A stretch of 64,000 bases of DNA from Oscillospiraceae bacterium (GTDB taxonomy: Bacteria > Bacillota > Clostridia > Oscillospirales > Ruminococcaceae), in NCBI GenBank assembly GCA_018110935.1, contig JAGDBX010000090.1, forward strand, positions 401 to 64,400, in the 5' to 3' direction. The translations under genes and the position numbers were made by a program. Below, one piece after another: positions 25,025-49,405 of this stretch; the stretch's first letter is position 1, and every line of letters begins with the position of its first letter. The notes under the pieces were generated by a model. The model was not told the DNA's origin, searched no databases, and saw only the letters and a list, made by a program, of their open reading frames with translations.

Positions 25025-27835
25025 TCAGTCTTCGCGGTATTCCTCGATGATAAACGCCTCAAGAATATCGCCTTCCTTGATATCGGCAAAACGCTCCAGC
25101 GAAATGCCGCATTCATAGCCGGTCGCGACCTCCTTGACATCGTCCTTGAAGCGGCGCAGTGAATCAATCTGATCCTCTGCCACAACGATGCCGTCACGCA
25201 CGACACGGATCTTGCACTGTCTTGTCACCTTGCCGTCCAGCACATAGCAGCCGGCGACCGCGCCGACACTGGAGATATGATACACCTGACGCACCTCGAT
25301 GCGTGCCATCTGCACCTCGCGGAACTTCGGCGCCAGCATGCCCTTCATAGCGGTCGAAATCTCCTCGATCGCATCGTAGATGATGCGGTACAGGCGGATA
25401 TCGACACCGTCTCTCGCGGCGGTCTCACTCGCGACGGGCATCGGACGGACATTGAAGCCGACGATGATCGCGTTGGATGCGTTCGCAAGCATGACATCAC
25501 TCTCGGAAACAGCACCGACCGCACCGTGAATGACACGGACGCGCACTTCTTCATTGGAGAGCTTTTCAAGCGACTGTGTAACCGCTTCCACAGAGCCCTG
25601 CACATCCGCCTTGACGATGACAGCCAGTTCCTTCATCTCGCCCTCTGCAATTTGAGAGAACAGGTTGTCGAGCGTGACTTTGCGGTAAGCCTTGAACTGC
25701 TCTTCCTTCGCTTCATGCTTTCTCTGCTCCACAAGCTCCTTTGCGAGACGCTCATCCTCAACGGCGTTGAAGACATCGCCCGCACTCGGGACCTCGGCGA
25801 GACCGGTGATCTCGACCGGAACAGAGGGACCGGCCTCCTTGACGACCTTACCCTTGTAATTTGTCATGACGCGGACTCTGCCGACCGCGGTTCCGGCAAT
25901 GATGACATCGCCGGTGTGAAGCGTACCGTTCTGCACGAGGATCGTGGCAATCGGGCCTCTGCCCTTGTCCAGACGCGCTTCGATAACGGTACCCTTTGCC
26001 AGACGGTTCGGGTTCGCCTTCAGCTCGCGGACTTCCGCAACAAGCAGAATGTTCTCAAGCAGCTCCTCGATGCCCTCACCGGTCTTTGCAGAGACGGGCA
26101 CACAGATCGTGTCGCCGCCCCATTCCTCGCAGACAAGCTCATATTCCGTGAGCTGCTGCTTGACGCGGTCGGGATTTGCGCCTTCCTTGTCCATCTTGTT
26201 GATCGCAACGATGATCGAAACGCCTGCAGCCTTCGCGTGGTTGATCGATTCGATCGTCTGCGGCATAATGCCGTCATCTGCCGCGACAACGAGGATCGCG
26301 ATATCGGTGATGTTTGCGCCGCGCGCACGCATGGATGTGAACGCTTCATGGCCGGGCGTATCAAGGAAGGTGATGGTCTTGCCTTCATGCGTGACCTGAT
26401 ACGCGCCGATGTGCTGTGTAATGCCGCCGGCCTCGGTATCTGTCACATGCGCATTGCGGATACGGTCGAGGATCGAGGTCTTGCCGTGGTCAACATGTCC
26501 CATGACGACAACGACCGGGCAGCGCTCCTCGAGTGCATCCTCAGGATCGGCTTCATCGGTGATCAGACGCTCTTCGATCGTGACGATGACCTCATGCTCG
26601 ACCTTTGCGCCGAGCTCTTCCGCGACCAGCGACGCGGTGTCAAAATCAATTTCTTCGTTGATATTGGCCATGACACCGAGTCCCATCAGTTTCTTGATGA
26701 CATCGCGGACCTGCACCTTCAGGCGGGTTGCCAGTTCGCTGACGACGATGCTGTCCGGAATCAGAACCTTGAGCTGCTGCTTTCTGGCACGCTCAAGCTC
26801 TAATCTGCGCAGCTTTTCCGCCTCTGTCTCGCGCACCTTGCCGGACTTCTGCTGTCTGGCTCTCTGCTGGGATTTCTGGGTGATCTTCTGCTTCTTTGCA
26901 GCGTTGTTATCGCGCTTGCCGCCTCTGCCCTGCGGGGCAATCTGCTCATAGCGCTCGTTATACTTATCCAGATCGACATAGCTGCCGCGCGTGTCGATCG
27001 TGTGGCGCTGCTGACTCGGCTGAACATCCGTAGATGCCGCAAAATCCATCTCGATCACAGCGCGCTCGCCGCGCTCCTGTGCCTTGGCAGGCTTCTTCGG
27101 AGCCTTGGGCTGACGCGGCTGCGGCGGCTGAGCAGGTGCCTTCTTCGGCTGCTCGGCTGCCGGTTTTGCGGCAGGAGCTGCAGCGGCCTGCGCCGGCTGA
27201 GCAGTCTGTTTGGCAGCAGCGGCAGCCTTGGCCGCCTGCTTCGCAGCCTGCTGCTGTTGATTCTGAGCCTTTCTCGCAGCTTTCTCCGCCTGCTGACGCT
27301 CATACATCGCGGCACGCTCTCTCGCGCGCTGCTCGGTCATCGCCGCCGTAACAACGCGCGGTGCGGCCGGAGACTCTTCAGCTGCAGGTGCTTCCGTGAC
27401 CGGAGCCTCCCGGACGGCAGGTGCGGCCTCTTTCACTTCTTCAGCCGGCTGAGCAGGCTTTTCTGCCTTGGCAGGCTTTTCAGCTGCAGGCTTCTCAGCC
27501 TTTGCGGGAGAAGCGGGCTTTTCCTTCTTCTTCTTTTCCGGCTTCTCGGCGTTTTCTTCCTTCTTCACAGTCGGACGCGCCGTTCTGGTCGGTTTCTTGA
27601 CCGTCTGCTGCGGCTCAGCCTGCTGCACAGAACGGTCAGCGTAATATGCTTTGAAATCCGCAACCGCCCGCGCCTGCGAGATCGACTCGAGCAGATAATT
27701 CATCTCCGTTTCGGTTATCGAAGATGTCGCCTTTCTGGTTTTATCGTCCAGCCGTTTGAGCTGTTCGATCAGCTCCTCTGCCGGCAGATTCAGATCTGCG
27801 GCAAAATCACTCAGCTTGACTTTCATTGTTGGCAT
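25025..27835 (-). CDS. infB: Translation initiation factor IF-2
   Basis: G-domain motifs are [14 protein letters not shown] and NKMD. The N-terminal region is long and Ala/Lys/Pro/Gln-rich. Start is at MPTMKVKL, with AAGGGGG 8 nt upstream. Confidence 0.96.
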
Positions 27836-27898
27836 TGGCAATACCCCCTTCGGTACTTTCGGTTCACCGCAATGCAGAGCACCGCGGATACATTCCAT

Positions 27899-39408: not shown

Positions 39409-41244
39409 ATGTCTCTGACAAAGAATCCCAATGTCAATCAGTGGGTCGATGAAATGATCGCACTGTGCAAGCCCGATCAGGTTGTCTGGATCGACGGCTC
39501 CAAGGCACAGCTTGACCAGCTCATCGCTGAGGTCACTGCCCTTCCGGACGGTCATCCGGATAAGCTTTATCCGATGAATCAGGATCTCTATCCGGGCTGC
39601 CTGTATCACCGCACCCGCCCGAACGATGTGGCGCGTGTTGAGGACCGCACCTTCATCTGCTCCCGCAGAAAGGAAGACGCAGGTCCGACCAACAACTGGA
39701 TGGATCCGAAGGAAATGTACGCCAAGCTCACCCCGCTCTATGACGGCGTGATGAAGGGCAGAACCATGTATGTCATCCCGTACAGCATGGGCCCGATCGG
39801 CTCTCCGCTCGCAAAGGTCGGCGTGGAGGTCACCGATTCGATCTATGTTGTTCTGAACATGAATATTATGACCCGTATGGGTACGCAGGCATTCAAGAAC
39901 CTCGGCGACGAGTCCAACGACTTTGTCCGCGGCCTGCACTCCAAGGCAGATGTCGATCCGGAGAACCGCTACATCGTCCAGTTCCCGGAGGACAACACGA
40001 TCTGGTCCGTCAACTCCGCATACGGCGGAAATGTTCTGCTCGGCAAGAAGTGCTTTGCGCTCCGCATTGCTTCCTACCAGGCAAAGAACGAGGGCTGGAT
40101 GGCTGAGCATATGCTCATCCTCGGCCTGCAGAAGCCGGACGGCGAGACCAAGTACATCTGTGCTGCGTTCCCGTCTGCCTGCGGCAAGACGAACCTCGCA
40201 ATGCTGATTCCGCCGGAAGGCTACCGTGCAAAGGGCTACAAGGTCTTCACCGTCGGTGATGACATCGCCTGGCTGAAGCCCGGCCCGGACGGCAGACTGT
40301 ACGCGATCAATCCGGAATTCGGCTTCTTCGGCGTCGCGCCGGGAACCAACGAGAAGTCCAACTTCAACGCGCTCGCTTCTACCAAGAAGAACGCGATCTT
40401 CACGAATGTCGCGATCGACAATTCCAACAACACCCCGTGGTGGGAGTCCCTGACCAAGGAGCCGCCGGTCGATGCGACCGAGTGGAAGGGCGCAAAGGTC
40501 AACGGTCCGGAATACTGCGCACAGGTCGGTCCGGACGGCAAGCATCTGACGCTCGCACACCCGAACAGCCGCTTCACCGCGCCGGCAGAGAACTGCCCGT
40601 GCATCAGCCCCGAGTTCAACAATCCGCAGGGCGTGCCGATCTCCGCGATCATCTTCGGCGGCAGACGCGCTTCCACGACTCCGCTGGTCTATCAGTCCTT
40701 CAACTGGGCACACGGCACCTACATGGGTTCTGCTGTCTCCTCCGAGACCACTGCGGCAGCAGCAGGTGCAGTCGGCGTTCTGCGTCATGACCCGATGGCC
40801 ATGAAGCCGTTCATCGGCTACAATGTCGGCGACTACTGGGCACACTGGCTCGAAATGGGCGAGATCCTCGGCGACAAGGCACCGAAGATCTTCAATGTCA
40901 ACTGGTTCAAGAAGGATGCCGAGGGCCACTTCATGTGGCCGGGCTTCGGCGACAACATGAGAGTTCTGGACTGGATCATCAAGCGCTGCGAAGGCACTGT
41001 TGACGCAGTCGAGACACCGATCGGCTATCTGCCGAATCCGGAAGACATCAGCCTTGAGGGCATCGAGGATGAGGTTTCTCCGGAGTGCATGAAGGAACTT
41101 GTCGCAGTCGACAAGGATCTCTGGAAGGCGGAAATCAAGGAGATGCGCAGATACTATGACGAGGACATCGCGGCAAAGGGCGGAAAGATTCCGCAGAAGC
41201 TGTACGAGGTGCTCGATCAGATCGAGGCAAATCTCAACAAGTAA
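39409..41244 (+). CDS. pckG: Phosphoenolpyruvate carboxykinase (GTP)
   Basis: 611 aa with FPSACGKTNLAML (kinase-1a/P-loop) and colinearity with the GTP-PEPCK family. Confidence 0.95.
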   Translation: MSLTKNPNVNQWVDEMIALCKPDQVVWIDGSKAQLDQLIAEVTALPDGHPDKLYPMNQDLYPGCLYHRTRPNDVARVEDRTFICSRRKEDAGPTNNWMDPKEMYAKLTPLYDGVMKGRTMYVIPYSMGPIGSPLAKVGVEVTDSIYVVLNMNIMTRMGTQAFKNLGDESNDFVRGLHSKADVDPENRYIVQFPEDNTIWSVNSAYGGNVLLGKKCFALRIASYQAKNEGWMAEHMLILGLQKPDGETKYICAAFPSACGKTNLAMLIPPEGYRAKGYKVFTVGDDIAWLKPGPDGRLYAINPEFGFFGVAPGTNEKSNFNALASTKKNAIFTNVAIDNSNNTPWWESLTKEPPVDATEWKGAKVNGPEYCAQVGPDGKHLTLAHPNSRFTAPAENCPCISPEFNNPQGVPISAIIFGGRRASTTPLVYQSFNWAHGTYMGSAVSSETTAAAAGAVGVLRHDPMAMKPFIGYNVGDYWAHWLEMGEILGDKAPKIFNVNWFKKDAEGHFMWPGFGDNMRVLDWIIKRCEGTVDAVETPIGYLPNPEDISLEGIEDEVSPECMKELVAVDKDLWKAEIKEMRRYYDEDIAAKGGKIPQKLYEVLDQIEANLNK

Positions 41245-41260
41245 TGCTTTTATTCAGAAC

Positions 41261-41287
41261 GCCCGCTGCAGGTTATCTGCAGCGGGC
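41261..41287 (+). terminator. Hairpin terminator after pckG
   Basis: An 11-bp perfect stem, gcccgctgcag / ctgcagcgggc, with loop gttat. The T-tail (gcttctgttg) is weak. Confidence 0.6.
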
Positions 41288-41367
41288 GCTTCTGTTGACA
41301 GAAATTGCCGTTTCGCGTTGCATCTGTGCAAAAAATGCGGTTTCATCCAAGAAATGCAGGCAAATTG

Positions 41368-41396
41368 TTGACATCTTTTCATATTTGTGCTAAAAT
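41368..41396 (+). promoter_or_regulatory. SigA-type promoter (TTGACA-17-TGcTAAAAT) for the CpsB-like gene
   Basis: TTGACA at 41368-41373, a 17-nt spacer, and TAAAAT at 41391-41396 preceded by TGc. Confidence 0.6.
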
Positions 41397-41431
41397 GAAA
41401 GCAGTGATACTTTGGGGAGGTGTGCTGGGAT

Positions 41432-42157
41432 ATGAATTATTATGTTGATGTCTATTCAAACCTGCTTCCCGGTGTGCCTTCTGCGGACGGCACAGTGCTG
41501 GATGAGGCGGCAGCGGATGAGCGCCTTGCTGTATTTCAGGAAAGCAACATCAAGACGGCTGTCTGCGCGCCGTATTATCAGCCGGAGTTCTGCGGAACAC
41601 CGGAGCAGTTTCTCGCAAAGCGGGACACATGGATCAATGCTGTCAATGAAGACCGTCAGATGCCGCATCTGGTCGGAGCTGCAGTAATGCCCCTCTCCTA
41701 CTGTCTGCAGCATATGCGTGAGCTTTCCGGATTCGTGATCGGCAGCTCCGATTATCTGCTGGTTGATCTGCCCAAGCAGCCGGTCACAGAGGAATTCTGC
41801 GAGACGCTGACACGGCTGCGGATCGTCAGCGGGCTTTCGCTGATTGCTGTGGATAGTGACCGTTGTTATGATGAATGGTCTCTGGAAGACTGGCTGACGC
41901 TGCGGCAGAACGGCATGCTGCTGCAGATCTCGATCAACGGCCTGCTTGTGCCCGAGCAGCGGCGTCTGTCGCTGTATCTGCTGGCAAATCAGCTGACGCA
42001 CTTTGTCGCTACCGGCGGAAGAGACATCAACGCGCCGCTGCGGTTCACCGAAGCGATGCGGTTTATTCAGCGCAGCCTGCCGGCTGGGATCTACCGCCGT
42101 GTCAAAAACAACGCAGGACTGCTGCTCTCCAATGCGGAGCCTTCGGTATTTGTGTGA
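41432..42157 (+). CDS. CpsB/YwqE-like PHP-fold protein with degenerate metal-binding motifs (predicted catalytically inactive)
   Basis: Start is at MNYYVDVYSNLLPG, with GGGGAGGTG 9 nt upstream. It is colinear with the CpsB/YwqE motifs DIHSHILPG, TPHH, GQEI, VIAHPER and ASDAHN, but here they read DVYSNLLPG, APYY, GAAV, IAVDSDR and ATGGRD. Confidence 0.6.
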   Translation: MNYYVDVYSNLLPGVPSADGTVLDEAAADERLAVFQESNIKTAVCAPYYQPEFCGTPEQFLAKRDTWINAVNEDRQMPHLVGAAVMPLSYCLQHMRELSGFVIGSSDYLLVDLPKQPVTEEFCETLTRLRIVSGLSLIAVDSDRCYDEWSLEDWLTLRQNGMLLQISINGLLVPEQRRLSLYLLANQLTHFVATGGRDINAPLRFTEAMRFIQRSLPAGIYRRVKNNAGLLLSNAEPSVFV

Positions 42158-42250
42158 AACAGCTGTTATTCCGAAGGGACTGTGTCCCTTTGGCGGTTAT
42201 GGGAACAGCCCGGTATTCATCAATACGCCGTGATTCATTTCTCAAACAAC

Positions 42251-42279
42251 AAAGCCCCTGCCTGACGGCAGAGGCTTTC
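42251..42279. terminator. Bidirectional terminator between the CpsB-like gene and the convergent aminotransferase gene
   Basis: Stem aaagcccctgcc / ggcagaggcttt has 1 mismatch and loop tgac. T-rich tails are present on both strands. Confidence 0.7.
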
Positions 42280-42289
42280 GTTTTCTGTT

Positions 42290-43498
42290 TTATTTGCCGT
42301 AAGCTTCCGCGAGCTTTTTGAAAGCAGGCAGGCTGCGCTCGATCATTTCAGTTGTCACACAGTAAGCGATGCGGACAAAGCCCTCACAGCCGAATGAATC
42401 TGACGGCACGATGAGCAGCTCATAATCGCGTGCCTTTTGGCAAAAGGCGTTTGCGTCAGGCTCCAGCGCCTGCACCCAGAGATAGAACGCACCGTCCGGA
42501 TAAATGCAGCGATACCCGTATTCGGTGAGTGCTTTATAGAGCAGGTCACGGTTTCTGCGGTAAACAGACAGATCGCCGGTTCTGCCGAGGTTATCGGCAA
42601 CCACGCGCTGTGCCATGCTCGGCGCGCAGACAAAGCCGAGCGCTCTGCCGGAACCGCAGACAGCGGCATATACGAGCTTGCTGTCTTTCATCTTCGGGGA
42701 AACGACAATATAGCCGATACGCTCACCCGGCAGCGAAAGCGATTTGCTGAACGAATAGCAGACAAAAGTATCATCATAGAGATTCGGCAGATAGGGCACA
42801 ACCGTGTCTGCGTCATAGACCAGCTCACGGTAGGGCTCGTCAGCAATCAGATAGATCGGATGTCCGTACTCCGCCTCTTTGGCGCGCAGAATATCGCAGA
42901 GCTTTCTGAGATTCGCCTCGGTAAAGACCACACCTGTCGGGTTGTTCGGGGTATTGATGATGACCGCCTTTGTCTGCGCATTGACCAGCTTTTCAAATGC
43001 GTCCAGATTGAGCTGGAAGCTGTCAAGATCTGCCGGAACAACGGTCAGATCAGCGTTTGCCGCTTCGACAAAGACGCGGTATTCCGGGAAAAAGGGCGCA
43101 AACGCGATGCAGTTGTCTCCGGGGCAGAGCACCGCATGAAGCGTGACGGTCAGTGAGGCGGCCGCACCGCAGGTCATGTATATATTTCCCGCGGAAATGC
43201 CTGCCGAAAACCGCTTGTTGATATCTGCGGCGATTGCGGAGCGTACCGGCTCCGCACCGACCGCCGATGTGTAGCCGTGCAGCAGAACGGAATCGGTTTC
43301 GTCCATCAGCCGGCGCATCGTGTCATGTACGCTATCCGGCGCGGGAACACTCGGATTGCCGAGGCTGAAATCAAAGACGTTTTCTCTGCCGATCTCAGCG
43401 GCACGGCGGTTGCCGTATTCAAATGTCTCGCGGATCACAGACGGTGCCTGCCCGAGCGCAAGCATCGACGCCTGAAAAGGTTGATAATTCTGAGCCAT
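42290..43498 (-). CDS. Class I/II pyridoxal-phosphate-dependent aminotransferase (AspC/AlaT-like)
   Basis: The PLP-Lys motif SFSKSLSLPGERIGY and INTPNNPTG are present. Start is at MAQNYQ, preceded by AAGAGGAAA. Confidence 0.88.
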   Translation of the reverse strand: MAQNYQPFQASMLALGQAPSVIRETFEYGNRRAAEIGRENVFDFSLGNPSVPAPDSVHDTMRRLMDETDSVLLHGYTSAVGAEPVRSAIAADINKRFSAGISAGNIYMTCGAAASLTVTLHAVLCPGDNCIAFAPFFPEYRVFVEAANADLTVVPADLDSFQLNLDAFEKLVNAQTKAVIINTPNNPTGVVFTEANLRKLCDILRAKEAEYGHPIYLIADEPYRELVYDADTVVPYLPNLYDDTFVCYSFSKSLSLPGERIGYIVVSPKMKDSKLVYAAVCGSGRALGFVCAPSMAQRVVADNLGRTGDLSVYRRNRDLLYKALTEYGYRCIYPDGAFYLWVQALEPDANAFCQKARDYELLIVPSDSFGCEGFVRIAYCVTTEMIERSLPAFKKLAEAYGK

Positions 43499-43551
43499 GG
43501 GAATTTCCTCTTTTCGTATGAAATATGATATGGATATATCGTCAGAAACAG

Positions 43552-44031
43552 TCAACGCCTGAAAAAGCTCCGGAGGCTGACTTTTTTCATCTCCGGCTGT
43601 TCACTGTCCTGCAGAAGACAGTCTGTGACGCAGTCAAGGGTCTTCAGTTCCTTGACCCACTCATCCGAATCCTGCTGATAGCTGATCATGCGCATGGAGC
43701 GGTTCAGCGCAGACTGCACCGTTTCGACGCCGTTCAGGTCGGTTTCATCCAGGAACAGCAGGACCGTCTGCCGCTCCAGCGCGGACGCCGCCCTGAGCTG
43801 ATTGACGCAGTTTTCATCAGCAAGCCACTGCTTTGAAACAAGGATCAGTGCCGTCCGGCACTGGCTGAGACGCTCAAGGTCTTCTCTGCGCTGCGCGTTG
43901 AAGCCCTTGTCAGCAACCCAGACGCGGAGTTTCTCAGACTGCAGCTGCCGGATGATTCTGGAAGCTGCTGTGCGGTTTTTCGCCGCGGAGCAGACTGCGA
44001 TGAAGTCTGCACTGCCCTGATAGGATTCCAT
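43552..44031 (-). CDS. Small stand-alone TIR-like domain protein
   Basis: 159 aa. DFIAVCS is a betaA-like strand, KLRVWVAD is betaB-like, and ALILVSKQWLADENCVNQL matches the TIR_2 S.W...E.. pattern. RBS AGGAGGA lies 7 nt upstream. The call comes from motif reading only. Confidence 0.55.
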   Translation of the reverse strand: MESYQGSADFIAVCSAAKNRTAASRIIRQLQSEKLRVWVADKGFNAQRREDLERLSQCRTALILVSKQWLADENCVNQLRAASALERQTVLLFLDETDLNGVETVQSALNRSMRMISYQQDSDEWVKELKTLDCVTDCLLQDSEQPEMKKVSLRSFFRR

Positions 44032-44067
44032 ATTCTTATCCTCCTGTTTTCATTTTACTGTATCGCA

Positions 44068-44538
44068 TCAGTCGTTCGAATCTTCCGTAAAATGATCCGG
44101 ACAGCTGACATAGAGATCAATTTTCAGATCGGTACCGGTCTCAAGACAGAAACGCATAACCTGCATAGACGGCGCGAGACTGGGGGACGGTTCATCAAAC
44201 CGAACCATCGGCACAACTTTCAGCGTCATGGAAACACGGTTCATAAGCCGTATTTTCCGGAGCAGATCAGCCTTCGGCACCAGTGCGGCGATCGTCATCT
44301 GCATTTGCTTCGCAGTATCCTTTTCGTATTCGATGCACGAACCGTAACGCCAGATCGCCGTTTCATGCTTTTTGCCGTCACCGCGGCGGTCGCCGATCCG
44401 ACGGATGCGTTCAGGTGCCAGACGCAGCAGTTCGGTGACCTGATCCGGATCAAACACACCGCGGATCTCAAAATATGTCAGACATCCTGTGTGCGGCGTG
44501 TGATAATAGACGCGTTTCGGCTTTCGGTCGTCCTTCAT
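44068..44538 (-). CDS. DUF4279-like protein
   Basis: 156 aa. YFEIRGVFDPDQVTELLRLAP......IW.Y and the C-terminal DLKIDLYV fit my recollection of the DUF4279 profile. The ATG overlaps the stop of the upstream GTPase-NYN gene (ATGA). Confidence 0.5.
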   Translation of the reverse strand: MKDDRKPKRVYYHTPHTGCLTYFEIRGVFDPDQVTELLRLAPERIRRIGDRRGDGKKHETAIWRYGSCIEYEKDTAKQMQMTIAALVPKADLLRKIRLMNRVSMTLKVVPMVRFDEPSPSLAPSMQVMRFCLETGTDLKIDLYVSCPDHFTEDSND

Positions 44539-47102
44539 CTGCTTCCTCCGATCAGAGCGCGGATCTCCGCCTCGGTCTGCCGCATTTCCGCTTCAAATTC
44601 CCTTGCGGAGATGCGGATGGCTCCGCCTTCCAGAATGATGATCTGTTCCAGCCCGTCAGAAGTCGCGACGCGGACACGGTGATCCTTCGCCAGCTGATGT
44701 GTGACGCGCTCGATGTAGGAATCGGCGGTTTCTGCTTCTTTTGTATAAACGACACTGATGTTTTGTTCCCTGATGATCTCTGTCGCGTGCCCTTTGATTT
44801 TGTAGGCGTCAAAGACGAGAATCACCTCGCATTTTCTGAATCCCTGATAATTGGAAAGCAGGTGGATCAGACGGCTGCGTGCAGATTCCAGGCTTTCTGC
44901 TGCAAGCGATTTCAGCGATTCCCACGAAAAAATGATATTATAACCGTCCACAAGCAGATATTCCTTGCCCTTCGGCATCGGCGCAGAGACGGAAACCGAC
45001 GGATCCAGCTCCGTCTTCGGATCACGGCGCATCGCCTTGCGGGTATCGCCGCCGATTTTGCCGTAGGTCCGCTCGTAGATCGCCATCAGCTCATCATCGC
45101 CCGCTGCGGAAAACTGCGGCCGGCGAACCGGTACGGTCTCCTCTTCAAATTCCGTCCGGTGGGTACGAAACGCAGAGGGCAGATGCATATACTGCGGCAC
45201 TTCCGCCCAGTTGACCAGAAAACCGGCACCGTGCGCACAAAACACGGAATCAGCGGAGTTTTCCAGATCACTGTCCGCGTCATAACCGATCTTTTCAATG
45301 ACGGCTTCCGCGTTATGACAGGGACGGTATCCGCCGAACGACAGCGACAGTTCTCCACGGCCTTTCGTATAGCTCAGAATCTCGGCTGCGTAATCATTCA
45401 TTTCCGAAACCGGCGCACTGCCGGTGATGACCGCGTGAATGCCGTCGGAATCCGGCGGCCTGAATTCAGCCGCACGCTGCGGGAGATCGGTCATGGCGAG
45501 TCCGAGTGCCTCTGCGGGAAGCTCCAATGTGAAATCGTAATACGGCTCCAGCAAAACAGACTGCGCGGAACGGAGTCCCTGCCGGACGGCGCGGTAAGTC
45601 GCCTGTCGGAAATCGCCGCCCTCGGTATGCTTGGGATGCGCTTTTCCGCTGACCAGTGTCAGTTTCAGATCCGTGATCGGCGATCCGGTCAGTACGCCGA
45701 GATGCTCTTTTTCCTCCAGATGCGTGAGGATCAGCCGCTGCCAGTTCCGGTCAAGCGCGTCTTCGGAGCAGTGTGTCTCAAACTGCAGACCGCTTCCCGC
45801 AGGCAGCGGTGTCAGGATCAGATGCACCTCCGCGTAATGTCTGAGCGGTTCGTAATGTCCGACTCCTTCCACCGGCTCCGCAATCGTTTCCCGATAAGTC
45901 ACGCTGCCACTGTCAAAGGTGACGGCATAACCGAATCTGTCTTCGATCTGCCTGGTAAGCACTTCAAGCTGCACTTTTCCCATCAGCTGCACATAGAGCG
46001 CACGAAGATGCTCATTCCAGAGCACATGGAGCTGCGGATCCTCGGCTTCCAGCTGCCTGAACTGTGAAAGCGCAGTGACCGGCGAAATGTCAGGCGGGAG
46101 AAGCACCTGATACCGCATGACAGGCGTCAGCTGTGCAGAGGCCGCTTGAGCGGCCGCGCCGATGCCGAGTCCGGCAAAGGCGTCCGAAAGCCCGGTGACC
46201 GCACAGACCGCACCGGTCTCCGCTTCATCCGCGGCAATATATTTCGCACCGGAATAGAACCGGATGCCGGTGATCTTTTCCGTCAGCGTTTCTCCGGCGG
46301 CATTCTGATAGGTCAGTTCAGCACGGTTTCTGAGCGTGCCGCCCAGTACCTTGAGAAAGGTCAGCCGGCTGCCCTTGGCGTCCACGGAGATCTTGAACAC
46401 TCTCGCGCCGAATTCAGGCAGGCGTTCGGTTTCCGCGGCATATTCATCTAAAATCCCGAGCAGAGCGGGAACACCCTTCATATCCCGCGCGGAGCCAAAG
46501 CAGCACGGGAATACTTCACGCTTTCTGACAGCATCGCGGAGCATCTCCGGCGGAATCATTCCGGTGTCAAGATAGGTTTCCATCATCTGCTCGCTGCAGG
46601 CGGCTGCCGCTTCGCACCGAGCGTCTTCATCTGTGTCAAACTGCACACAGCAGGGCGAGAGCTTCGCCTGCAGTTCCTGCATGAGTGCGGTTTCGTTTTT
46701 TTCAGCCAGATCCATTTTGTTGATAAACAGGATCACAGGAATCCGGTAACGGGCCAGAAGCCGCCAGAGCGTTCTGGTATGGCTCTGCACGCCGTCCGTT
46801 CCGCTGATGACGAGCACGGCGCAGTCAAGCACCTGCATGGTGCGTTCGGTTTCTGCGGAGAAATCCACATGGCCGGGCGTATCCAGCAGCGTGACGAGCC
46901 GTTCTCCGAGCGGGAAAGACGCCTGATGAGCAAAGATCGTGATGCCGCGGCTGCGTTCAATGGCGTCCGTGTCAAGCCATGAATCGCCGTGATCGACTCT
47001 GCCGCGTTTCCGGATCTCCCCGGTATGAAAGAGGAGCGCTTCCGCTAAAGTTGTTTTGCCGGAATCGACATGCGCCATGATTCCGACGGTCAGCTGCTTC
47101 AT
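44535..47102 (-). CDS. EF-G/TetM-family translational GTPase fused to a C-terminal YacP/Rae1-type NYN ribonuclease domain
   Basis: Start is at MKQLTVGIMAHVDSGKTT, with GGAGGAGG 8 nt upstream. G motifs are AHVDSGKT, RGITI, DTPGH and NKMD. About 650 aa are colinear with TetM/EF-G. The last roughly 142 aa (44538-44963) read EYLLVDGYNIIFSW..VFDAYK..ETADSYIE..VATSDGLEQ, which is the YacP NYN pattern. Confidence 0.8.
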   Translation of the reverse strand: MKQLTVGIMAHVDSGKTTLAEALLFHTGEIRKRGRVDHGDSWLDTDAIERSRGITIFAHQASFPLGERLVTLLDTPGHVDFSAETERTMQVLDCAVLVISGTDGVQSHTRTLWRLLARYRIPVILFINKMDLAEKNETALMQELQAKLSPCCVQFDTDEDARCEAAAACSEQMMETYLDTGMIPPEMLRDAVRKREVFPCCFGSARDMKGVPALLGILDEYAAETERLPEFGARVFKISVDAKGSRLTFLKVLGGTLRNRAELTYQNAAGETLTEKITGIRFYSGAKYIAADEAETGAVCAVTGLSDAFAGLGIGAAAQAASAQLTPVMRYQVLLPPDISPVTALSQFRQLEAEDPQLHVLWNEHLRALYVQLMGKVQLEVLTRQIEDRFGYAVTFDSGSVTYRETIAEPVEGVGHYEPLRHYAEVHLILTPLPAGSGLQFETHCSEDALDRNWQRLILTHLEEKEHLGVLTGSPITDLKLTLVSGKAHPKHTEGGDFRQATYRAVRQGLRSAQSVLLEPYYDFTLELPAEALGLAMTDLPQRAAEFRPPDSDGIHAVITGSAPVSEMNDYAAEILSYTKGRGELSLSFGGYRPCHNAEAVIEKIGYDADSDLENSADSVFCAHGAGFLVNWAEVPQYMHLPSAFRTHRTEFEEETVPVRRPQFSAAGDDELMAIYERTYGKIGGDTRKAMRRDPKTELDPSVSVSAPMPKGKEYLLVDGYNIIFSWESLKSLAAESLESARSRLIHLLSNYQGFRKCEVILVFDAYKIKGHATEIIREQNISVVYTKEAETADSYIERVTHQLAKDHRVRVATSDGLEQIIILEGGAIRISAREFEAEMRQTEAEIRALIGGSR

Positions 47103-47133
47103 GCGTGTTTCCTCCTCCAGTTCAATTATTATG

Positions 47134-47162
47134 ATTATAGCACATTTTGAAAATAATTTCAA
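47134..47162 (-). promoter_or_regulatory. SigA-type promoter of the GTPase-NYN / DUF4279 / TIR unit (TTGAAA-17-TGcTATAAT)
   Basis: Reverse complement reads TTGAAA (47162-47157), a 17-nt spacer, then TATAAT (47139-47134) preceded by TGc. It sits about 30 nt upstream of the ATG at 47102. Confidence 0.65.
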
Positions 47163-47248
47163 CCCGTGATTTGCGAGAGTGTATCTGCCTGATTCGGTTA
47201 TCCCCATGTTTCTCTGCATTCTCTCCTCCCGAAAGAACGCTTTGACAG

Positions 47249-47290
47249 AAAAAGCGCCCCCGCAGGTTCAATCTTTACCTGCAGGGGCGC
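47249..47290 (-). terminator. Rho-independent terminator of the arg operon (after argF)
   Basis: A 13-bp stem, gcgcccctgcagg / cctgcgggggcgc (1 mismatch), followed by TTTTT on the minus strand. It lies 14 nt after the argF stop. Confidence 0.8.
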
Positions 47291-47303
47291 TGCGTTTTGC
47301 TGT

Positions 47304-48206
47304 TCAGCCCATGACCTTGACCATGACGGCCTTCTGCGCGTGCAGACGGTTCTCCGCCTCGTCAAAGATCTCGTTTGCGTGCGACTCAAAGACCTTTTCG
47401 GTGATCTCTTCGCCGCGGTGCGCGGGCAGACAGTGCTGCACCATGCATTCAGAGTGTGCAGCTGCCATCACCTCATCGTTGACCTGATAGCCCTTGAAGG
47501 CAATACGGCGCTTTTCGGCCTCGCCCTCCTGTCCCATAGAAGCCCAGACATCCGTAAAGATGACATCGGCGTTCTCAGCTGCAAGCAAGGGGCTGTCGGT
47601 CATCGTGAATTTGCCGCTTGCGTTCGCGAACTGAAGCACCTGTGCATCCGGCTGATAATCTGCCGGGCAGGCAACGGAAACCTGCATGCCGACCTTCAGA
47701 CCGCCGACGATCAGCGAATTCGCCATGTTATTGCCGTCACCGATATAGCACATCTTCAGGCCGTCAAAGCTGCCCTTGTACTCACGGATCGTCATCAGAT
47801 CGGCAAGCACCTGACACGGATGGCAGAAGTCAGTCAGGCCGTTGATAATCGGAATGCTGCCGAACTTTGCAAGATCCTCGACCTCCTGCTGGGCAAAGGT
47901 GCGGATCATGATGCCGTCCAGATAACGCGACAGAACGCGGGCGGTATCCTGAACAGGCTCTCCCCTGCCGATCTGAAGATCATGCGAGGAGAGGAACAGC
48001 GGATAGCCGCCAAGCTGCACCATACCGGTCTCAAAGGAAACGCGGGTGCGCGTTGAGGCCTTCTGGAAGATCATGCCGAGCGTCTTTCCGGCAAGATGCG
48101 GATGCGGAATGTTGTGGCTGCGCTCATACTTGAGCTGATCTGCAAGGTTCAGCAGATCGATGATCTCCTCCGCGGAGAGATCCAGCATTTTCAGAAGATG
48201 CTTCAT
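47304..48206 (-). CDS. argF: Ornithine carbamoyltransferase
   Basis: Motifs STRTRVSFE (carbamoyl-phosphate), HPCQ and HCLPA are present. Confidence 0.95.
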   Translation of the reverse strand: MKHLLKMLDLSAEEIIDLLNLADQLKYERSHNIPHPHLAGKTLGMIFQKASTRTRVSFETGMVQLGGYPLFLSSHDLQIGRGEPVQDTARVLSRYLDGIMIRTFAQQEVEDLAKFGSIPIINGLTDFCHPCQVLADLMTIREYKGSFDGLKMCYIGDGNNMANSLIVGGLKVGMQVSVACPADYQPDAQVLQFANASGKFTMTDSPLLAAENADVIFTDVWASMGQEGEAEKRRIAFKGYQVNDEVMAAAHSECMVQHCLPAHRGEEITEKVFESHANEIFDEAENRLHAQKAVMVKVMG

Positions 48207-48229
48207 ATCGTTCGTCCTTTCTGTTATTA

Positions 48230-49405
48230 TCAGGCCTCAAGGACACGCCGCAGAATGGCGAGTCCGGCGTCCATTTCGTCCTTTGTGATCGTCAGCGGCG
48301 GCAGCAGACGAAGCTTTTCCTTGGCAGTCAGCACAAGGAGACCCGCGTCATTTGCCGCAAGCATGACATCATGCGCATCCTTTGTTCTGAGCGTCATGCC
48401 GATCATCATACCGATGCCGGAAAGCGATATGATCTCCGGAATCTCGGCAAGCTTTGCCCGCAGATATGCGGCTTTTTCCTTTACGGAATCAAGAAAGCCC
48501 TCTGCCGTGATCTGATCGAGAACCGCGACCGCACCTGCGCAGACAACGGGGTTGCCGCCGAAGGTCGAGCCGTGTGTGCCGGGTGTGATGACATCCTCGC
48601 ACTTTTCATCTACAAGGCAGATGCCGATCGGCAGGCCGCCGCCGATGGCCTTTGCCATCGTCGTGACATTTGCCTTTACGCCGAACTGCTCCTGCGCAAG
48701 GAAGGTTCCGGTCCTGCCGCAGCCGGTCTGCACCTCGTCGATGATCAGGATGATATCCTGCTCCTCACAGATTTTCGCGACAGCCTGCACATAGTCTTTG
48801 TCGAGCGCGCAGACACCGCCTTCGCCCTGAATGACCTCGATCATGATGCCGCAGACCGTTCCGTCGAGCTTTGATTTCAGATCGTCAAGGTCATTGGCCT
48901 TTGCAAAGACATGACCGGTCGGGAACGGGTAGAAATACTGATGGAACACATCCTGTCCGGTCGCCGCGAGCGTCTCCATCGTTCTGCCGTGGAAGCTGTT
49001 GACAAGGGAGATGATCGTGCCGCGGTTTTTGCCGTAGCGGTCAGAGCTGTACTTTCTCGCGACCTTGATGGCACATTCATTCGCCTCCGCGCCGGAATTG
49101 CCGAAGAACATCCGCTTCATGCCGGTCACGGCAGCAAGCTTTTCGGCAAGCTCCGCCTGCGGAGCGGTGTAGTAGTAATTGCAGGTGTGCTGGAGCTTCT
49201 TCACCTGTGCGCAGACCGCATCCGTCCACGCGTCATTGCACCATCCGAGCACATTGCAGCCGATGCCGCTGCCGAAGTCGATGTAGGTTTTGCCGTTCTC
49301 GTCGGTACAGGTACAGTTGTGACCGGACGCCTCAACCAGCGGGATCCTGCCGAACGCTTTCATAGTAAACTGATCGGTTGCCTCAATAATATTCATAGTC
49401 ATCAC
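48230..49405 (-). CDS. argD: Acetylornithine aminotransferase
   Basis: This is a class III aminotransferase (GNSGAEANE, DEVQTGCGRTG, TTMAKAIGGG) in arg operon context. Confidence 0.92.
   Translation of the reverse strand: MMTMNIIEATDQFTMKAFGRIPLVEASGHNCTCTDENGKTYIDFGSGIGCNVLGWCNDAWTDAVCAQVKKLQHTCNYYYTAPQAELAEKLAAVTGMKRMFFGNSGAEANECAIKVARKYSSDRYGKNRGTIISLVNSFHGRTMETLAATGQDVFHQYFYPFPTGHVFAKANDLDDLKSKLDGTVCGIMIEVIQGEGGVCALDKDYVQAVAKICEEQDIILIIDEVQTGCGRTGTFLAQEQFGVKANVTTMAKAIGGGLPIGICLVDEKCEDVITPGTHGSTFGGNPVVCAGAVAVLDQITAEGFLDSVKEKAAYLRAKLAEIPEIISLSGIGMMIGMTLRTKDAHDVMLAANDAGLLVLTAKEKLRLLPPLTITKDEMDAGLAILRRVLEA

Follow-up and report, generated by a model that had tools for sequence, protein, structure and literature searches.

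A translational GTPase fused to a Rae1-type nuclease domain, and its lineage-restricted DUF4279 partner, in an Oscillospiraceae bacterium

The YacP-type NYN nuclease Rae1 was shown in 2025-2026 to start the rescue of collided ribosomes in Gram-positive bacteria (PMC12407103, PMC13622287). Its cleavage site on the mRNA lies at the tail of stalled or collided ribosomes, about 12 nucleotides (nt) upstream of the stalled A-site codon, and the products are substrates for trans-translation (PMC12407103, PMC13622287). The earlier description of cleavage in the A site, on which the first-pass annotation of the DNA studied here had relied, is now outdated. Rae1 itself, about 170-180 amino acids (aa) long, stands alone and is encoded in the operon gltX-cysS-mrnC-yacO-yacP. 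Here we describe a locus in which a nuclease domain of this type forms instead the C-terminal part of a translational GTPase. The locus lies in a 64,000-nt stretch of an Oscillospiraceae genome (JAGDBX010000090.1, positions 401-64,400), which we call the window. The fusion gene is followed by genes for a DUF4279 protein and a TIR-like protein, and these three make up the unit. The unit and the neighbors considered here are all encoded on the minus strand.

Such fusions have been noticed before. In ten Clostridiales species Atkinson 2015 described Tet-like proteins that carry a YacP-like NYN domain (PMC4342817), and Matelska et al. 2017 mentioned TetM-NYN_YacP fusions from Clostridia, whose role they regarded as unclear (PMC5499597). 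The first-pass annotation had taken the system to be undescribed, and for the fusion that does not hold. A literature search found no experimental or functional study of the GTPase-NYN fusion. The unit is best seen as a known, functionally uncharacterized GTPase-Rae1 fusion together with a newly noticed and lineage-restricted DUF4279 partner. In its proposed logic it resembles SmrB of E. coli, Cue2 and NONU-1 of eukaryotes, and Pelota-Hbs1; these systems recruit a nuclease or rescue factor to stalled ribosomes, and some of them use a translational GTPase to do so. SmrB and Cue2/NONU-1 have the SMR fold, however, which is unrelated to the NYN fold of the fusion, and we know of no collision-rescue system in which the nuclease is joined covalently to the GTPase.

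The domains of the fusion were identified using Pfam. The GTPase part matches GTP_EFTU (E = 2e-51), EF-G_D2, EFG_IV (E = 7e-20) and EFG_C (E = 2e-18), with a weak match to EFG_III, so that the domain order is G-II-III-IV-V as in EF-G, TetM and TetO. A conserved linker of about 115 aa joins this body to the NYN domain. The match to NYN_YacP (PF05991) at residues 716-848 has E = 4e-48 and a score of 164 bits, compared with a cut-off of 24.6, and phmmer aligns residues ~715-848 with the B. subtilis YacP/Rae1 sequences of 5MQ8 and 5MQ9 (E = 4e-24). The C-terminal 140 residues are thus a YacP-type NYN domain, but where Rae1 stands alone the domain in the window is tethered to a five-domain EF-G-like GTPase, expressed from its own promoter in surroundings unrelated to the Rae1 operon.

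Conservation of the functional motifs was scored over 121 fusions, i.e. the window protein and 120 homologues. The NYN domain retains the equivalents of the catalytic residues Asp7 and Asp81 of Rae1 together with two further aspartates; Asp719, 765, 794 and 816, which include the aspartates of the VFDA and TSD motifs, are all invariant or nearly so. The same is true of the four GTPase motifs G1-G4 (AHVDSGKTT, RGITI, DTPGH and NKMD) and of the catalytic His78. As judged from these alignments, both enzymatic halves of the protein look intact and constrained. The tip of domain IV (residues 489-499, window 45606-45638) carries the sequence HxKHTEGGDFR, which, x aside, is equally conserved in the set. 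It is unlike the tips of EF-G and TetM, and presumably makes a family-specific contact with the decoding center.

The fusion has the features of the translational GTPase superfamily in its EF-G/EF2 branch, having G1-G4, the histidine of DxPGH and domains II-V. Many of its relatives (P0005, P0026, P0027, P0031, that at locus L046 and others) are named "TetM/TetW/TetO/TetS family" in NCBI annotation. There is a real similarity to the Tet proteins. The G' insertion is short and TetM-like, TetM aligns to the fusion as one stretch over residues 1-593, and the best NCBIfam family is tet_protect, with E = 8e-116. Yet the protein fails all the curated cut-offs. Among the Tet models it scores 387.8 against 775 for tet_protect, 260.8 against 1100 for tet_protect_M_W and 301 against 900 for Otr(A), and it also falls below the EF-G equivalog cut-offs, with 273.8 against 659 for TIGR00484 and 331.8 against 583 for NF009381. 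The nuclease extension and the domain IV tip set it apart from both groups. Domains IV-V score 78 bits against EF-G, compared with 61-62 bits against TetO and TetM. The window contains a second translational-GTPase-like open reading frame (ORF) of 957 aa at 25025-27898 on the minus strand, possibly IF-2, whose G domain is 32% identical to that of the fusion.

Gene neighborhoods were compared over a set of 47 loci (L001-L047). The fusion is widespread in Oscillospiraceae, Ruminococcus and Lachnospiraceae. In most cases it stands by itself amid housekeeping genes, behind a conserved promoter of its own, and the flanks vary by lineage. In about 25 loci where the fusion is no more than 69% identical to that of the window (L002-L027, L045-L047), among them loci of these three groups, of Monoglobus pectinilyticus and of Agathobacter rectalis, the flanks contain neither DUF4279 nor TIR genes, and there is no recurrent downstream gene. 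The ratio of nonsynonymous to synonymous substitution rates (dN/dS) is 0.08-0.13 for the fusion, indicating purifying selection; this and all the dN/dS values below are rough, with dS near 1.

The unit looks native to its chromosome. Its G+C content of 0.52-0.59 is like that of the flanks, which are housekeeping genes, and no mobile-element genes or signs were found around it, in agreement with the first-pass annotation. That annotation had also proposed a candidate defense system. PADLOC gave no match for the TIR-like or DUF4279 proteins and no credible match for the fusion. The two matches that the fusion did receive, LeoA on the G domain (E = 1e-3) and ThsB on the NYN domain (E = 0.05), were dismissed as far below threshold and at chance level. 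The full-length matches to the fusion among "plasmids" are Agathobacter and Monoglobus records that measure 250-520 kb and are non-mobilizable. The best match in the phage collection, MT835563.1 (L047, "UNVERIFIED: Bacteriophage sp."), carries the full GTPase-NYN fusion beside genes for NAD(P)H-hydrate dehydratase and diaminopimelate epimerase. We rejected carriage by phage in this case, as the record is evidently a mislabeled bacterial contig with housekeeping genes. MT835514.1 is a second match in the phage collection; the assignment as a bacterial contig covers MT835563.1 only.

The gene following the fusion encodes a protein that matches DUF4279 (PF14106) with E = 2e-16 and 60.6 bits against a cut-off of 25, covering 112 of the 116 profile positions. 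A hidden Markov model built from four such partners placed a DUF4279 gene directly after the fusion in L001/L039, L028, L030, L031 and L032-34, and tblastn added L038, L040/41 and L044. In each case the fusion shares at least 72% identity with that of the window, and in a neighbor-joining tree every DUF4279-linked fusion falls in one clade. The two genes are tightly juxtaposed, overlapping by up to 8 nt or lying up to 16 nt apart, with a Shine-Dalgarno sequence usually located within the last codons of the fusion. In the window the stop and start codons overlap as ATGA (44538-44535), and the Shine-Dalgarno sequence is provided by the last codons of the fusion (L-I-G-G, GATCGGAGGA, window 44539-44552). 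The element GATCGGAGG within this region is kept in L001, L030, L032 and L038. DUF4279 is constrained to a similar extent to the fusion, with dN/dS of 0.05-0.14.

The fusion-DUF4279 pair is found in at least four differing contexts. In the window it lies between arg genes and an aminotransferase gene. L031 and L044 have ACT and homoserine dehydrogenase genes downstream, L032 has genes of the HD-domain, Lactamase_B and PolyA_pol (tRNA nucleotidyltransferase) families, and L040 has a 491-aa ORF. In L001, L031, L032, L040 and L044 the pair occurs without a TIR gene. L030 (1-4764), where the fusion is 86% identical to that of the window, has TerB and BrxC/D-like genes upstream. There divergent genes for TerB_N/TerB_C, a BrxC/BrxD-like AAA ATPase, a helix-turn-helix protein and a DEAD-box helicase replace the arg genes, and they look like a defense-island insertion beside the unit.

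DUF4279 corresponds to the predicted immunity family FdL-Imm5, which is paired with RNase toxins (PMC9424270, PMC13304343). An example is the partner of Rhs-Ntox33 in Salmonella SPI-19. The protein of the window resembles this family in its PF14106 match, in a predicted alpha+beta structure with weak ferredoxin-like matches, and in the position of its gene, immediately downstream of and overlapping one that ends in an RNase domain. However, the upstream protein is cytoplasmic and without a secretion or trafficking domain. A Pfam scan found in it only the translational GTPase and NYN domains, and no Rhs, PAAR or LXG. The DUF4279 gene is moreover under ordinary purifying selection, and related fusions do without it.

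The third protein matches TIR_2 (PF13676) with E = 1e-8 and 35.9 bits against a cut-off of 28. Searches of PDB sequences with the single sequence or the family profile gave no significant match, and the fold search alone succeeded. An alignment by hhalign of the family with a SARM1 TIR sequence was not usable and was discarded. Using an AlphaFold model (pLDDT 84), the top Foldseek matches in the PDB are the plant TIRs RPS4 and RUN1, plus SARM1 and SpbK, with E-values from 5e-6 (RPS4) to 7e-4 and TMq of about 0.55-0.63. On the strength of this model and the TIR_2 match the protein is assigned a genuine TIR fold.

A TIR fold is shared with ThsB of Thoeris and with other bacterial TIR NAD-cleaving enzymes (NADases) and signal synthases, and such an activity was suggested in the first-pass annotation. 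The sequence weakens that suggestion. To judge the catalytic column we used a profile search of 1.84 billion representatives; it gave 900 relatives, and the best 150 of these supplied 190 aligned domains. The column occupied by Gln78 in the window protein is glutamate in 167 of the 190, this being the canonical catalytic Glu of the S..S..C..E[LI] motif. Gln78 is invariant in all ten members of the TIR-like family, and the motif serine is replaced by aspartate. Changing the glutamate to glutamine or alanine abolishes NADase activity in SARM1, AbTir and ThsB. Given this effect, the sequence makes it unlikely that the TIR-like protein is a canonical NADase. The locus also differs from Thoeris in having no ThsA-type partner (SIR2, SLOG or Macro), as the first-pass annotation had correctly observed, the neighbors being the arg genes and the aminotransferase, and in the absence of a PADLOC match.

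The distribution of the TIR-like gene is narrow. A word-indexed search found nine homologues, of which those at least 64% identical are the copies in L028, L030 and L038. The complete trio was seen only in these three loci and the window, and by implication in the contig of P0001/P0134. The neighborhood check did not bear out synteny of the three genes across relatives. In the tree the three full-length TIR-linked fusions form one sub-clade inside the DUF4279 clade. In L001/L039 (fusion 77% identical) the DUF4279 stop codon runs straight into the aminotransferase promoter without a TIR gene, whereas in L030 and L038 that promoter follows the TIR stop codon. This indicates that the TIR gene was inserted between DUF4279 and the aminotransferase promoter. 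Orthologues at 43-49% identity sit in unrelated loci. That in L035 (1080-2446) has a 4-nt overlap onto the end of an EamA transporter gene, and that in L037 (535-3470) lies 27 nt before an 809-aa ORF without a Pfam match. The gene has a dN/dS of ~0.2 and is still constrained, although its neighbors have values two to three times lower. The TIR-like gene is most likely a recent addition, encoding an unrelated passenger or a non-enzymatic adaptor, and its link to the locus is probably recent, lineage-restricted and incidental. The proposal that the trio acts as one system holds in part, in that the fusion and DUF4279 are tightly coupled in one clade, but the TIR gene is limited to a sub-clade and most fusions stand alone.

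The features of the locus are collected in Table 1. All those listed in the first-pass annotation are present on the minus strand, and its GTPase-NYN, DUF4279 and TIR assignments are all above the Pfam gathering thresholds.

Table 1. Coordinates of the fusion unit and its neighbors in the window
Feature	Position	Strand	Description
Ornithine carbamoyltransferase ORF	47304-48206	-	gene just upstream of the terminator preceding the unit
Intrinsic terminator	47249..47290	-	end of arg-gene transcript; G+C-rich hairpin cagcgcccctgcagg...cctgcgggggcgc followed by tttttct
Sigma-70-type promoter of fusion gene	47134..47162	-	TTGAAA-17-TGcTATAAT, extended -10
Ribosome-binding site of fusion gene	47110..47118	-	GGAGGAGGA (given also as GGAGGAGG), seven nt before ATG 47102
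GTPase-NYN fusion gene	44535..47102	-	855 aa; EF-G/TetM-like domains G, II-V, linker, YacP/Rae1-type NYN
DUF4279 (FdL-Imm5) gene	44068..44538	-	156 aa; ATG overlaps fusion stop codon
TIR-like gene	43552..44031	-	159 aa; own AGGAGGA ribosome-binding site in 36-nt spacer after DUF4279 gene
Promoter-like element of aminotransferase gene	43525..43555	-	TTGACT-19-TATCAT; overlaps TIR stop codon
Class I/II pyridoxal phosphate-dependent aminotransferase gene	42290..43498	-	402 aa; PF00155, 2e-47; neighbor, outside the unit
First strong intrinsic terminator 3' of unit	42251..42278	-	12-bp stem, seven G-C pairs, T-rich tail; after aminotransferase gene

The promoter of the fusion gene matches the consensus at 11 of 12 positions, and is the top minus-strand promoter-like site within 41000-48500. 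Alignment of seven loci with differing upstream genes shows it to be conserved as TTGnnn-17-TGnTATAAT, with the TTG...TGnTATAAT columns invariant. A dedicated promoter, as the first-pass annotation had it, is therefore well supported. The terminator that ends the arg-gene transcript is predicted to shield the fusion gene from upstream transcription. We rejected an alternative start at 47219 that would give a protein of 894 aa in favor of the ATG at 47102, since the homologues are 852-861 aa in length; the -10 box would also fall inside the longer ORF. The 5' untranslated region is then only ~25 nt, leaving no room for a leader element. A search of Rfam found just two tRNAs, both distant from the locus.

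At the other end of the unit, the first-pass annotation had found no terminator before 42251-42279 and had considered that the aminotransferase gene might be co-transcribed. There is indeed no convincing earlier terminator; two weak terminator-like sites at 43863-43846 and 46470-46454 lie inside coding sequence. But the aminotransferase gene, separated from the TIR-like gene by a 53-nt spacer, has a promoter element of its own. In relatives the sequence TTGACA-17-TGGTATCAT is found at the equivalent place, where it immediately follows the stop codon of whichever gene comes before, the TIR gene in L030 and L038 and the DUF4279 gene in L001. The window copy is weaker than those of the relatives, with a spacer of 19 nt rather than 17 nt. 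The aminotransferase thus appears to have its own promoter, so that read-through from the unit is possible but the gene would not depend on it.

Adjacency of the fusion and the aminotransferase is common to Lachnospiraceae and Oscillospiraceae. In L046 (Agathobacter rectalis NZ_CP143948.1, 3090-7178) an aminotransferase gene whose product is 55% identical to that of the window lies 94 nt downstream of a GTPase-NYN fusion of 933 aa, with neither a DUF4279 nor a TIR gene between them. The adjacency may therefore be old, with DUF4279, and later TIR, inserted between the two genes. On its upstream side the fusion in L046 adjoins a BrnT/CopG toxin-antitoxin pair.

What might the fusion do? We lean towards the view that it is a Rae1-like mRNA nuclease delivered by its GTPase part to stalled or collided ribosomes, and consider this somewhat probable. 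We infer that the protein binds the ribosome and that mRNA is its target. The GTPase body would dock in the factor-binding site of a stalled ribosome, or of one collided with it, and so position the tethered NYN nuclease to cut the mRNA. By analogy with Rae1 the cleavage would be expected to depend on translation, and would give a truncated message that could be cleared by trans-translation. The fusion would then have a chromosomal housekeeping or stress function in collision rescue or mRNA surveillance, rather than being part of a mobile immune system. The first-pass annotation had allowed for a housekeeping role in ribosome quality control, and this turned out to be a better reading than defense. 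In the clade of the window the translationally coupled DUF4279 protein would most likely bind and restrain, or otherwise tune, the nuclease domain, and the TIR-like protein would be a bystander or a non-enzymatic adaptor.

The pattern of linkage indicates that the fusion and DUF4279 are a real two-gene module, acquired once in one clade. Several observations nevertheless weigh against so close a partnership. Most fusions have no DUF4279 partner, which means that in general the nuclease can do without it. L002 is nested inside the DUF4279 clade yet has no DUF4279 gene nearby. A metagenome scan with the DUF4279 alignment gave six loci, in two of which, L042 (18-1435) and L043 (225-4025), there is no fusion directly upstream. 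These orthologues are 56-57% identical to that of the window and have similar upstream ribosome-binding regions; a Sir2-type deacetylase-like ORF precedes that in L042 at a distance of 160 nt, and that in L043 lies just before a carB-like ORF, both ORFs being recognized by eye. Coupling of the two genes is therefore not obligatory. The structure of DUF4279 is of little help. Its AlphaFold model (pLDDT 84, alpha+beta) has no significant PDB match in a fold search (best E = 0.07), with weak and non-significant matches to RRM and PII-like ferredoxin folds, and the published similarity of DUF4279 to CdiI (4G6V) was not recovered in that search. The immunity role of the family is itself a published prediction only.

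The same gene arrangement can be read as a toxin-immunity module, similar to toxin-antitoxin or abortive-infection systems, in which the GTPase-NYN protein would be an RNase toxin directed at the ribosome and inhibited by DUF4279 until phage or stress releases it, with the TIR-like protein as sensor or adaptor. A C-terminal nuclease followed by an overlapping DUF4279 gene is the classic layout, and DUF4279 belongs to a predicted immunity family (PMC9424270, PMC13304343). The pair is mobile between contexts, the TerB_N/TerB_C and BrxC/BrxD-like ATPase genes are immediately upstream in L030, and the TIR-like gene outpaces its neighbors in evolutionary rate by a factor of two to three. Yet most lineages keep the fusion, with identical catalytic residues, in the absence of DUF4279, some DUF4279 orthologues in turn have no fusion directly upstream of them, and the pair is under ordinary purifying selection, with no diversification. 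Nor do the lack of a credible PADLOC match or of mobile-element genes, the native composition, and a TIR gene that is limited to one sub-clade, lacks the catalytic Glu and has orthologues elsewhere, fit well with such a module, which we think unlikely. A related proposal that we regard as quite unlikely has the fusion and DUF4279 as a cytoplasmic, ribosome-targeted nuclease/immunity switch. DUF4279 would hold the GTPase-delivered Rae1-type nuclease away from the ribosome until a stress or infection signal displaces it, and in the innermost clade the TIR-like protein with its Glu-to-Gln change would be a non-enzymatic sensor or adaptor. If true, this would be a new translation-shutoff module made from a housekeeping rescue factor and a borrowed polymorphic-toxin immunity protein.

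The substrate could in principle be rRNA or tRNA rather than mRNA, with the fusion acting in ribosome biogenesis or maturation, or in ribosome inactivation or turnover, and DUF4279 as an RNA-binding cofactor with an RRM-like, ferredoxin fold. YacP-type NYN proteins were first proposed from operon context to process rRNA or tRNA, and the pair in L032 adjoins Lactamase_B-family and PolyA_pol-family genes; the weak RRM and PII-like matches of the DUF4279 model point the same way. But those matches are not significant, RNA-metabolism neighbors are found in only one of the at least four contexts, and Rae1, the sole member of the family studied experimentally, is an mRNA endonuclease (PMC12407103), which leaves a role in rRNA or tRNA metabolism doubtful. 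Finally the NCBI names would make the fusion a tetracycline ribosomal protection protein with an accessory RNase domain. Atkinson 2015 assigned such proteins to the Tet subfamily and speculated that resistance might work through an RNase (PMC4342817), and the tet_protect match and the single-stretch alignment of TetM are consistent with that. However, at 388 bits the protein reaches half the tet_protect cut-off of 775, and it falls far short of every specific Tet model. Domains IV-V are closer to EF-G, the tip keeps an EF-G-like His together with the family-specific motif, and the gene is chromosomal, vertically patterned and without the context of an integrative element. Tetracycline protection is accordingly the reading that we find very unlikely.

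A GTPase-delivered Rae1-like nuclease would have consequences for the understanding of Rae1 itself. Fusion of the nuclease to an EF-G-like GTPase suggests that docking takes place at the factor-binding site, and provides a natural test of how Rae1 is recruited. The fused version is carried by many abundant gut Clostridia, among them Ruminococcus, Oscillospiraceae, Agathobacter and Monoglobus. If DUF4279 does act on the fusion in the clade that has it, it would be the first polymorphic-toxin immunity family to control a translation factor inside the cell. The fusion genes are routinely named as TetM/TetW-family tetracycline resistance despite failing the cut-offs, and this may inflate counts of resistance genes in gut metagenomes. 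The greatest interest of the family thus lies in the recruitment of Rae1 to ribosomes, and in its widespread mis-annotation as tetracycline resistance.

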